Positions 54,593 to 56,154 of a stretch of DNA of 64,000 nt are shown here, piece after piece (the stretch's first letter is position 1; the number at the start of each line of letters is the position of its first letter). The position numbers were made by a program, and so were the translations under genes. The notes below the pieces were generated by a model. It had not been told where the DNA came from. It was given only the letters and a program-made list of their open reading frames with translations, and ran no database searches. The stretch lies in contig JAJCYV010000042.1 in the NCBI GenBank assembly GCA_029262695.1, positions 6,518 to 70,517 of the forward strand, given 5' to 3'. Source of the stretch: Chloroflexota bacterium (GTDB taxonomy: Bacteria; Chloroflexota; Dehalococcoidia; SM23-28-2; RBG-16-64-32).

Positions 54593-56128
54593 CTACGCTT
54601 CTGCGGGCACTTCGTCGTAGTATTCCGCGCCCAGGTGGGTGATCTGGTCTTCGCCCATGAGCCAGCGCAGCGTGTTCTTGAGCTTGGTCTGCTGGATGAA
54701 GAGGTCGTGCTCCGGGTAGACGGAGGGGGCGTGCTGCGGGCTCTTGAAGTAGAAGGAGAGCCACTCCTGGATGCCCTTCATTCCGGCACGCTGGGCGAGG
54801 TCGAGGAAGAGCGCCAGGTCCAGCACGATTGGCGCGGCGAGGATTGAGTCCCGGCAGAGGAAGTCGATCTTGATCTGCATCGGGTAGCCGAGCCAGCCGA
54901 AGATATCGATGTTGTCCCAGCCCTCCTTGTTGTCGCGGCGGGGCGGGTAGTAGTTGATGCGCACCTTGTGGAAGATGTCGCCGTAGAGTTCGGGGTAGAG
55001 GTCCGGCTGGAGGACGTACTCCAGCACGCCCAGCTTCGACTCTTCCTTCGTCTTGAAGCTCTCCGGGTCGTCCAGCACCTCGCCGTCGCGGTTGCCGAGG
55101 ATGTTCGTGGAGTACCAGCCGGCGACGCCCAGCATGCGCGCCTTGAGCATCGGCGCGATGACGGTCTTCATCAGGGTCTGGCCGGTCTTGAAGTCCTTGC
55201 CGCAGACCGGGACGCCGCGCTCGTTGGCCAGGGTGAGCATTGACGGCAGGTCCAGCGTCAGGTTCGGCGCGCCGTTGGCGAAAGGCACGCCCTCCATAAG
55301 CGCGGCGTAGGCGTAGATCATCGATGGTGCGATCGTTGGGTCGTTCGTCTCCATCGCGGCCTCGAGGTTCTCGAGGTTGCTGTGGGCCTCGCCAGGCTCC
55401 AGGAAGATCTCCGTCGAGGCGCACCAGACGAGTACCAGCCGGTCGCAGCCATTCGCCTCCTTGAAGTTGCGGATGTCCTGGCGCAGTGACTCGGCCAGCG
55501 CCATCTTGTTCGGAGCCTCCTTGACGTTCGTGCCGTGCAGGCGCTTCACGTAGTAGTCGTCGAAGACCGCCGGCATCGGCTCGATCGTCTTCAGGAAGTC
55601 GGCGATCGGCTCGATGTGGTCGTGGCGGTCTAGCACGCCGGCTTTGACGGCGGCTTCGTAGGCGTTGTCGGGGATTGGGTCCCAGGCGCCGAAGACGAGC
55701 TGGTCGAGCTCTGCCAGCGGCACGAAGTCCTTGATGAGGGGGGTCTGAGGGTCGGTGCGTTTGCCGAGGCGGATCGTGCCCATCTGGGTGAGCGATCCGA
55801 TCGGCTTAGCGGTGCCGCGGCGGGCGTGCTCGACGCCGGCGATGAACGTCGAGGCGACGGCGCCGAGGCCGACGAGGAGTATGCCGAGGCGGCCCTCAGC
55901 GGGGGCGATTTCGTGGGAGTTGGTGGCGACGAAGTCCTTTGCTTCCAAGACAATCCCTTTCTGACGGGCGAGCGACATCAAAGGCACGTGCCACTGCGAG
56001 GGGATGCGCCCGGTGCTCGCCCAGTACTCGATGGTGCTCTGGCGTTTGCCGAGGAGGTTGGCCAGCGCCGTCTGCCCGCCGAAGCGCTTGATGACGCGGG
56101 CGGCGGGGGAGAGGGTTTTGGTGACCAT
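54593..56128 (-). CDS. ino1: Inositol-3-phosphate synthase fused to an N-terminal Cro/YdaS-like helix-turn-helix domain
   Basis: 511 aa in a single frame. Residues ~5-65, PAARVIKRFGGQTALANLLGKRQSTIEYWASTGRIPSQWHVPLMSLARQKGIVLEAKDF, look like a YdaS/Cro-type HTH. From about residue 78 the MIPS Rossmann start RLGILLVGLGAVASTFIAGV and the family core follow. No start codon or stop lies between the two parts. Confidence 0.9.
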   Translation of the reverse strand: MVTKTLSPAARVIKRFGGQTALANLLGKRQSTIEYWASTGRIPSQWHVPLMSLARQKGIVLEAKDFVATNSHEIAPAEGRLGILLVGLGAVASTFIAGVEHARRGTAKPIGSLTQMGTIRLGKRTDPQTPLIKDFVPLAELDQLVFGAWDPIPDNAYEAAVKAGVLDRHDHIEPIADFLKTIEPMPAVFDDYYVKRLHGTNVKEAPNKMALAESLRQDIRNFKEANGCDRLVLVWCASTEIFLEPGEAHSNLENLEAAMETNDPTIAPSMIYAYAALMEGVPFANGAPNLTLDLPSMLTLANERGVPVCGKDFKTGQTLMKTVIAPMLKARMLGVAGWYSTNILGNRDGEVLDDPESFKTKEESKLGVLEYVLQPDLYPELYGDIFHKVRINYYPPRRDNKEGWDNIDIFGWLGYPMQIKIDFLCRDSILAAPIVLDLALFLDLAQRAGMKGIQEWLSFYFKSPQHAPSVYPEHDLFIQQTKLKNTLRWLMGEDQITHLGAEYYDEVPAEA

Positions 56129-56134
56129 GGGGCC

Positions 56135-56154
56135 ATGATAACGAAATATTCGTT
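56135..56154 (-). promoter_or_regulatory. -10 hexamer TATCAT 6 nt before ATG 56128, overlapped by perfect palindrome AACGAA-ATA-TTCGTT (candidate operator)
   Basis: The minus strand reads TATCAT ggcccc ATG. The palindrome spans 56140-56154 in a locally AT-rich patch. Confidence 0.45.

Follow-up and report, generated by a model that had tools for sequence, protein, structure and literature searches.

We analysed a stretch of 64,000 nucleotides from a Chloroflexota bacterium (assembly GCA_029262695.1, contig JAJCYV010000042.1, positions 6,518 to 70,517; here called the window). It encodes an inositol-3-phosphate synthase (MIPS) that carries at its N-terminus a Cro-like helix-turn-helix (HTH) domain, catalogued as 'carph-isopro' in NCBIfam, and the promoter of this fused gene harbours a perfect palindrome of 17 bp. 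The data suggest that the fusion is an autorepressing bifunctional 'trigger enzyme' acting at its own promoter, and we put the probability of this reading at about three in four. An intact enzyme and a DNA-binding domain were found in one polypeptide, and the comparative evidence points to an operator at its own promoter.

The open reading frame (ORF) of 511 aa runs from the HTH domain (FGGQTALANLLGKRQSTIEYWASTGRIPSQWHVPLMSLARQKGIVLEAKDF, residues 16-66) into the Rossmann motif of MIPS (RLGILLVGLGAV, residues 80-91) in one common frame, exactly as described in the initial annotation. An in-frame TAA is located 8 codons upstream of the ATG, with no ATG, GTG or TTG in between, and 56128 is therefore the first possible start. 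The palindrome had originally been given as the 15-bp AACGAA-ATA-TTCGTT at 56140-56154; it is real, but its true length is one base more per arm (56139-56155; Table 1). Two further statements about this region hold as they were made. The -10 hexamer TATCAT is situated exactly 6 nt (GGCCCC) before the ATG, and the region is an AT-rich island in GC-rich DNA, with a GC content of 0.425 in 56120-56159 versus 0.70-0.75 on both sides. Perfect palindromes with arms of 7 nt and a centre of 3 nt are not rare in the window (14 present, 8.4 expected from shuffles), so that the significance of this one rests on its position and on its conservation elsewhere. It is the only AT-rich one among the 14 (24% GC in DNA of 67% GC), and no other exact copy of it occurs in the window. 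A second site at 28986-29002, which is GC-rich and has three mismatches, was taken as a chance match, since 8 of 100 shuffles gave at least two matches. We also considered the palindrome as a terminator or a structured RNA and rejected this: the RNA fold reaches only -4.5 kcal/mol and is not followed by a T run, the terminator scan found nothing there, and Rfam gave nothing above noise. Relatives of the gene are transcribed across the HTH-MIPS junction, as seen in metatranscriptome contigs from four runs that have neither direction nor true ends, and one metatranscriptome contig joins truB to the fusion gene. Judged from the promoter register, the mRNA is probably leaderless or nearly so, starting at the ATG or no more than 1-3 nt from it.

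To compare fusion promoters, a metagenome scan with an alignment of six sequences as query added 80 loci, and after removal of duplicates 61 different fusion promoters were obtained. A match to the operator was defined as at most three mismatches among the 14 specified bases, in promoter register, and 65 unfused MIPS loci (280 nt) were used for comparison. The palindrome was found in register in 56 of the 61 fusion promoters and in none of the 65 unfused loci, where the best match had at least four mismatches in every case. When scored against TAACGAANNNTTCGTTA, 16 promoters were perfect, 22 had one mismatch, 12 had two and 6 had three. In the 14 genome loci with the fusion the element lies just upstream of the start codon, for example as TTGACAacTAACGAAAAAAACGTTAGAAT (L006) or TTGCATttTAACGAAAAATTCGTTATCAT (L040). 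The surrounding promoter follows a common plan in the 56 sequences. The -35 position reads TTG(A/C)C (T in 51, T in 32 and G in 41 of the 56), with TTGACA or TTGCCC in relatives, and is followed by 2 nt and then by the palindrome, of which TAACGA is conserved in 49-56 and its partner CGTTA in 47-56 of the 56 at each position. The -10 hexamer TAnnnT begins with the last TA of the palindrome (T in 56, A in 55 and the final T in 55), and the spacer between the two hexamers is 17 nt long and filled by the palindrome. The start codon follows 10-13 nt after the palindrome, or 6-9 nt after the -10 hexamer, without a Shine-Dalgarno sequence in 44 of the 56 promoters. This comparison of sequences shows that the predicted operator is conserved, keeps its register and is exclusively associated with the domain. 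The suspicion that the palindrome is a matching operator beside a DNA-binding domain is thus supported by an element that tracks the domain. Four AT-richer fusion genes have, besides the promoter site, a near-operator (TACCGAAAAATTCATTA, 2-3 mismatches) about 710 nt into the MIPS coding region, at one shared codon position (L006:6690-6706, L009:6708-6724, L010:6711-6727 and L011:6714-6730). It may simply reflect a conserved peptide and codon usage, or may be an auxiliary site within the gene.

The domain also occurs in other genes. An exhaustive search of 1.84 billion representative proteins returned 497 clusters with the domain (E up to 0.001), and in all larger proteins whose architecture was examined it was N-terminal. 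Among the C-terminal partners are MEDS (with PAS) sensor domains, P63C, RhuM, an Apyc1-like metallo-beta-lactamase, IalB and DHBP synthase, and short proteins with the domain were found as well. At 27 loci the same N-terminal domain is followed by another continuation, giving P63C proteins (about 370 aa in total), MEDS/PAS proteins (about 390 aa), a RibBA fusion of 480 aa (L127) or short proteins; all eight members sampled from these loci passed the NF046037 model of the domain. In these loci the pattern TAMCR-N7-YGKTA gave 22 matches in 3,591 nt of upstream sequence versus 2 in the other 85,741 nt. An exact match is present within 130 nt upstream in 14 of the 27 loci, and most of the others have near-matches at the corresponding position. 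Their promoters share the register of the MIPS fusions, as for instance in TTGACAatTACCAACTTTATTGTTATTAT. As the domain at the 5′ end is the one thing that these genes share with the MIPS gene, we conclude that the domain itself, and not another factor, probably reads the palindrome. This is our strongest argument for such a role of the domain.

In P63C-type and short genes a second 17-bp palindrome (e.g. TAACAAGGAGGTTGGTA) is present in addition to the one in the spacer. It encloses the Shine-Dalgarno sequence 3-7 nt before the ATG, and the two operators are about 33 bp apart (L085:2689-2742, and also L094, L107, L112, L132, L139 and L159). At L127:2200-3773 the 480-aa protein consists of the carph-isopro HTH and RibBA (DHBP synthase and GTP cyclohydrolase II, riboflavin synthesis), and two operator-like sites were found upstream of it: TACCAGTTATTTTGTTA lies in the spacer of the promoter, and TAACGAATATACTGGTA is 4 nt ahead of the ATG. 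By its predicted features, this RibBA is a second metabolic enzyme with the same arrangement. A literature search retrieved no paper that names the carph-isopro domain or describes its function, its DNA target or its fusion to MIPS. The claim that this architecture had not been described can therefore be kept for the fusion; the domain had already been catalogued as NCBIfam NF046037. That model only names the domain; what the present analysis adds is the operator, its register in the promoter and the interpretation as autoregulation.

A sequencing or assembly error near 55900-55950 had been considered as a possible origin of the fusion, and independent assemblies speak against it. An independently assembled contig of 1204 nt (run X1) matches the window across 55600-56388 without a single difference or gap, and a second metagenome run does so across 55832-56118. 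No indels were seen in four runs, and the single frame recurs in more than 120 homologous clusters. These clusters (500-530 aa) were retrieved in the protein search with 96-100% query coverage and 79-93% identity, and those that are named belong to Dehalococcoidia or Tepidiformaceae. Contigs from one genome per species contained 14 loci with a single-frame fusion, 12 of which are labelled as Chloroflexota lineages; the labels are Chloroflexota, Tepidiformales, Dehalococcoidia, Dehalococcoidales, SAR202, Ktedonobacterales and Chloroflexia, and one Acidobacteriota. With the metagenome loci added, the database search proposed at the outset thus revealed a widespread fusion. At 66 unfused loci (Gemmatimonadota, Actinomycetota, Acidobacteriota and others) MIPS aligns only from residue ~67-74, with 68-79% identity, and the MIPS of known structure 7nwr aligns from residue 72, in line with the expectation that homologues start near residue 75. 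A profile of the domain was found in frame in 14 of 14 fusion loci, and in 0 of 66 cases within ~6 kb of the unfused genes. On these sequence comparisons, we conclude that the fusion is real and old.

Some loci in this set need comment. The sole fusion locus labelled Acidobacteriota, L040 (CAVQZU010000009.1), has a MIPS frame that is interrupted after 307 codons. Because its promoter and protein closely resemble those of L004 (Ktedonobacterales) and because of the interrupted frame, it looks like a mis-binned or error-containing contig and not like a fusion outside Chloroflexota. L028, a metagenome-assembled genome of Tepidiformaceae, has an unfused MIPS (match from residue 56) without the HTH domain and without the upstream palindrome, so that even closely related lineages do not all have the fusion. 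Two short 'stand-alone' HTH proteins, P0021 and P0292, were considered as a split version or a free regulator and rejected, as they are frameshifted fusions in low-coverage long-read contigs. Their seeming positions were beside MIPS and at the end of a riboflavin operon, the riboflavin adjacency being a coincidence, and their loci were kept as two additional operator-bearing loci. At L081:4001-4700 and L082:4001-4420 the apparent stand-alone HTH genes are frameshifted MIPS fusions; directly past the premature stop, the Rossmann motif is resumed in a different frame. More generally, many 'proteins' of 80-140 aa with the domain in protein collections are pieces of the fusion that a contig end or a frameshift has truncated, which makes their listing as stand-alone copies a database problem.

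The N-terminal extension scored 58.6 bits with NF046037 in the whole protein and 61.6 bits for residues 1-79 alone, at a cut-off of 38. Pfam gave a sub-threshold match to a CI-repressor HTH for residues 9-61, and in PHROGs the domain matched phage DNA-binding and repressor families. Residues 1-72 were folded with AlphaFold from an alignment of 44 sequences. As had been predicted for these residues, the model is an HTH fold; it has a predicted local distance difference test (pLDDT) score of 86.8 and four helices (8-15, 19-26, 30-39 and 44-57), of which the third comes after helix 19-26 and a turn of 3 residues. The best PDB matches in Foldseek are all-alpha Cro proteins, namely Xfaso1 Cro (3bd1), N15 Cro (6on0/2hin, including an operator complex) and P22 Cro (1rzs), followed by Xre-type antitoxins and the lambda and 434 repressors. 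For Xfaso1 Cro the probability was 1.00, the template modelling (TM) score 0.60-0.70 and the identity 27-31%; the Foldseek E-values are modest (0.016-2.6), as expected for a helical domain of 60 residues. R29, Q30, S31, T32 and W36 are invariant in 36 fusion proteins, and the HTH-coding stretch of 14 orthologues shows 260 synonymous versus 237 amino-acid-changing codon differences relative to the window. The codon-difference counts and the invariant residues indicate that the extension is a translated, constrained domain. The linker that follows consists mostly of 'x' consensus positions in the alignment of the 36 proteins, and has pLDDT values of 59-71 in the full-length model and 49-80 in the model of residues 1-72. 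Judged from these models, its ~18 residues are a flexible tether between the HTH domain and the N-terminus of MIPS.

The remainder of the protein matched NAD_binding_5 (PF07994; residues 81-488, E 1.6e-97, 327.2 bits versus a cut-off of 25) and Inos-1-P_synth (PF01658; residues 316-428, E 6e-33, 113.7 bits versus a cut-off of 27). The closest solved MIPS is 7nwr_B (E 3.6e-172; query residues 72-498 on chain residues 23-447), and yeast, archaeal and other MIPS structures were matched by the protein as well. Across the 36 fusion proteins the Rossmann motif GLGAV is kept and a large number of residues are invariant. The fusion therefore appears to contain a complete MIPS, which is predicted to convert glucose-6-phosphate into inositol-3-phosphate in an NAD-dependent manner.

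These features suggest how the protein might act. MIPS enzymes are oligomers, with tetramers in the solved structures, and the fusion would thus present its HTH domains in pairs. Two such domains on a MIPS oligomer would bind the two half-sites of TAACGAA-N3-TTCGTTA. Equivalent half-site bases are 10 bp apart, which is one helical turn, and dimeric HTH repressors use this arrangement on operators of 17 bp. Besides filling the 17-nt spacer of the sigma-70-type promoter, the palindrome covers the -14 G and reaches into the -10 hexamer by two bases (-12/-11 TA), so that the bound protein would exclude RNA polymerase and the enzyme would repress its own synthesis: the more enzyme, the less transcription. 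We infer DNA binding, and repression rather than activation, from the sequences compared here. In the organism of the window, the promoter would also control the downstream genes for phosphatidylinositol lipids. Binding might in addition be modulated by glucose-6-phosphate, NAD+ or an inositol phosphate.

Several observations weigh against autorepression by the fusion. A simple promoter scan called no promoter at the gene, and the -35 hexamer in the window is weak (3/6). Five of the 61 fusion promoters have only a degenerate element, either a 16-bp form or one of the TAACGG...TTGGTA and TACCAA...TTGATA types. The full-length AlphaFold model is poor (pLDDT 62.8), and neither the placement of the HTH domain on the enzyme nor the geometry of two HTH domains is readable from it. 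The Pfam gathering scores were missed for both YdaS_toxin (PF15943; 20.3-23.3 bits versus 30) and P22_Cro (PF14549; 17.6-21.7 bits versus 30.2). Because of this we regard the domain as a relative of the Cro/YdaS families and not as a scored member, though relatives within the domain family reach E 1.7e-27 with P22_Cro and E 1.4e-18 with YdaS_toxin. The label 'Cro/YdaS-like' of the initial annotation stands at the level of fold and superfamily, given the NF046037 match, the four helices and the Cro proteins among the top matches; at the level of the Pfam families it does not. Moreover, the half-sites contain CG in MIPS-type and CA in P63C-type genes though the recognition helix QSTVQHW is identical, and an attempt to derive a recognition code from changes in helix residues led to no conclusion for the same reason. 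Finally, the site may belong to a wider regulon or be used by a separate protein as well, our scan having covered the window and the loci.

An alternative is that a regulator encoded by another gene, either a free carph-isopro/Cro protein or an unrelated one, uses the palindrome as its operator, while the N-terminal domain does something else, for example competes for the site or makes protein-protein contacts. Short carph-isopro proteins do exist (94 aa in L083 and 116 aa in L085); they share QSTVQHW and could recognise similar sites. We nevertheless consider this improbable. No second carph-isopro domain was found in the window or within ~6 kb of the 14 genome loci, and most of the apparent stand-alone copies beside MIPS turned out to be frameshifted fusions. 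In addition, the site follows the domain whatever the downstream gene, and is missing from 65 of 65 unfused MIPS promoters. The suspicion of an artefact, with a miscalled start or with an error of sequencing or assembly that merged MIPS with a separate small Cro-like gene, could point to the split versions in public assemblies (L081 and L082). It is in those contigs, of low coverage and from long reads, that the error lies, with the Rossmann motif continuing in the other frame. Independent contigs give the window sequence with 0 differences, the single frame is found in more than 120 clusters and at 61 promoters, and no start codon or Shine-Dalgarno sequence is present before residue 80; the chance of an artefact is negligible.

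If the HTH domain does bind the palindrome, it might still activate, either by acting within the spacer as MerR-type factors do or by helping RNA polymerase to a promoter with a weak -35. The -35 hexamer of the window, TGGCTA, would leave room for this, and MerR-type activators, which also bind between -35 and -10, provide a precedent. Their activation depends on a spacer of 19-20 nt, whereas the spacer here has the optimal 17 nt, and many relatives combine a perfect TTGACA with a good -10 hexamer and would need no activator. Activation from the position of the palindrome is therefore unlikely. The second site over the ribosome-binding site in P63C-type relatives fits occlusion, Cro proteins are repressors, and overall we give activation very little credence. 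A further and similarly unlikely alternative is a domain that has lost DNA binding and serves as a structural or oligomerisation appendage, with the palindrome being kept as a part of the promoter, for instance as a spacer or a UP-like element of a leaderless transcript. In its favour, the palindrome includes core promoter positions (-14 G and -12/-11 TA) whose conservation would be expected in any case. Dyad symmetry is not required by a promoter, yet it is also preserved at the far end of the spacer, where TAACGA is conserved at every position. The residues of the predicted recognition helix are invariant, and other genes of the domain family have the symmetric element too, in some cases in two copies and once placed over the Shine-Dalgarno sequence. 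An appendage of this kind is accordingly hard to credit.

Autorepression by the fusion would place it beside a small group of known proteins. BirA, NadR, PutA and the archaeal RbkR are bifunctional enzymes and repressors, or 'trigger enzymes', and effectors are biotinyl-AMP for BirA and CTP and FMN for RbkR (PMC5397151). Like the fusion, they are enzymes with an N-terminal DNA-binding domain and have palindromic operators at promoters of their own pathway. RbkR, too, was first recognised by comparative genomics, from a fusion together with a conserved upstream palindrome (PMC5397151). The present protein differs from them in its enzyme, as MIPS is an NAD-dependent isomerase-type synthase; in its DNA-binding fold, which is all-alpha Cro whereas theirs is winged helix or ribbon-helix-helix; and in its predicted target, which is its own promoter whereas theirs are sets of pathway operons. 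To our knowledge, MIPS has not been reported among the trigger enzymes, and none of the four uses a Cro-type domain. With all-alpha Cro repressors the domain shares a small four-helix HTH and a recognition helix that starts with a QS(T/A)-type motif, and its predicted operator is two-fold symmetric, 17 bp long and placed over a promoter, the size being that of lambda-type operators. It differs from Cro in being the N-terminal module of a chromosomal enzyme of 511 aa and not a free phage protein of 60-70 aa, and its dimer would form through the body of the enzyme and not through the Cro dimer interface.

Transcriptional control of MIPS is known from other organisms. IpsA, a LacI-type regulator of ino1 in Corynebacterium and Mycobacterium, is described as required for the formation of inositol-derived lipids (PMC3899939). 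It resembles the fusion in controlling transcription of the MIPS gene and thereby inositol-derived lipids, but it is a separate protein of another family, whereas the fusion has its regulator built into the enzyme, with repression as the predicted effect. In Arabidopsis, MIPS has been linked to nuclear gene regulation as a moonlighting function (PMC13210883). This links the enzyme family to gene regulation besides catalysis, but plant MIPS has no dedicated DNA-binding domain, its mechanism is chromatin-associated and indirect, and there is no evolutionary link to the bacterial HTH fusion. In earlier work on Arabidopsis, MIPS1 is said to act at its own promoter.

Enzymes that double as DNA-binding repressors are few, and each has been a useful model of how metabolism and transcription talk to each other. 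The fusion, if our reading is true, would add an enzyme-repressor for the first committed step of the synthesis of inositol and inositol lipids, and would provide a first functional hypothesis for the uncharacterised carph-isopro family. The hosts (Dehalococcoidia, Tepidiformales and SAR202) belong to the Chloroflexota, a phylum that is abundant and mostly uncultured and in which gene regulation has hardly been studied. With a domain of 60 residues, a site of 17 bp and a sigma-70-like promoter, the system has small parts that might serve elsewhere as a compact repressor-operator pair. A bolder and tentative extension, which we hold to be possible but rather doubtful, is that the sigma-70 promoter, the spacer operator, little or no leader and the carph-isopro HTH form a portable self-repressing cassette that was repeatedly placed before unrelated Chloroflexota genes, among them at least two enzymes that convert sugar phosphates (MIPS and the RibBA of L127). 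In the enzyme fusions the catalytic body would be the sensor, with occupancy by substrate, NAD+ or product altering how the tethered HTH pair is spaced or ordered. The flux through the first committed enzyme of a pathway would then directly set the transcription of that pathway.

Table 1. Positions of the fused gene, its promoter elements and the downstream genes in the window.
Feature	Position	Strand	Remarks
Complete fused gene: HTH domain, linker and inositol-3-phosphate synthase	54593..56128	-	511 aa and stop codon, ATG start; ORF list, Pfam, NF046037, >120 homologous clusters
carph-isopro / Cro-like helix-turn-helix domain, residues 9-61	55946..56104	-	NF046037, AlphaFold model, Foldseek
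Predicted recognition helix QSTIEYWAST, residues 30-39	56012..56041	-	third helix of the domain; recognition role suggested by the Cro fold
Variable linker, residues 62-79, from HTH to Rossmann fold	55892..55945	-	'x' positions of the alignment, low pLDDT; unfused homologues start within it or just behind it
MIPS catalytic part, residues 80-511	54596..55891	-	Pfam, PDB 7nwr_B, 71-79% identity with unfused MIPS from other phyla
17-bp perfect palindrome TAACGAA-ATA-TTCGTTA, predicted operator of the fused HTH	56139..56155	.	only exact copy in the window
-10 hexamer TATCAT	56135..56140	-	first two base pairs are the last two of the 17-bp palindrome; 56140 is also the last of the 15-bp version
Weak -35-like hexamer TGGCTA, 3/6	56158..56163	-	17 nt upstream of the -10 hexamer
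ATG start, predicted leaderless	56126..56128	-	6 nt after the -10 hexamer, no Shine-Dalgarno sequence
Lip_A_acyltrans	53488-54504	-	Pfam
PHP-domain protein (histidinol-phosphatase-like)	52730-53569	-	Pfam
GT4 glycosyltransferase	51597-~52790	-	Pfam
CDP-alcohol phosphatidyltransferase	50986-51597	-	Pfam

Upstream of the fusion gene lie infB, rbfA and truB, and downstream of it follow four genes (50986..54504 on the minus strand; Table 1) and then a thioredoxin-like protein. By their Pfam assignments, the four are the gene set expected for phosphatidylinositol (PI) or PI-mannoside-like lipids, and strand and overlapping or abutting ORFs suggest that they are probably co-transcribed with the fusion gene. 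The PHP-domain protein is a candidate for the phosphatidylinositol-phosphate phosphatase step, because it is located between the acyltransferase and the GT4 gene and is conserved in the closest relative, L001. The listed ATG of the acyltransferase ORF lies inside a structured intergenic stretch, and at its end this ORF overlaps the next one by 82 nt; the first residue matched by Pfam is 33, and translation therefore probably begins at a site downstream of the listed one. We also considered a conserved lipid operon and rejected it, as the gene order of the window is kept only in L001. At the other fusion loci the neighbours are unrelated (a ferredoxin, ParA-like and FtsZ/CetZ-like proteins, a HAD hydrolase, an alcohol dehydrogenase, RidA and a thiamine pyrophosphate enzyme). 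The neighbourhood thus varies while promoter, operator and fusion gene travel together, which makes these three the conserved unit. Autoregulation of inositol-lipid synthesis, as proposed in the initial annotation, accordingly remains a sensible prediction for the lineage of the window, with lipid genes downstream in the window and in L001, but does not extend to the other loci.

A 9-mer, ACGTAGGGR, occurs four times in the window versus 0.39 expected, and no shuffle reached four (564-572, 54476-54484, 54572-54580 and 56283-56291). Three of the copies flank the MIPS gene, each beside a GC-rich hairpin. One hairpin, AGGGGCGC-N-GCGCCCCT, is located at 56271-56287 after truB, and another, GGACAGACC-TTCA-GGTCTGTCC, at 54553-54574 just past the MIPS stop codon; the folding z-score of 54455-54600 is only -1.77. 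The 9-mer and its hairpins may represent a small intergenic repeat or a terminator without a T run.

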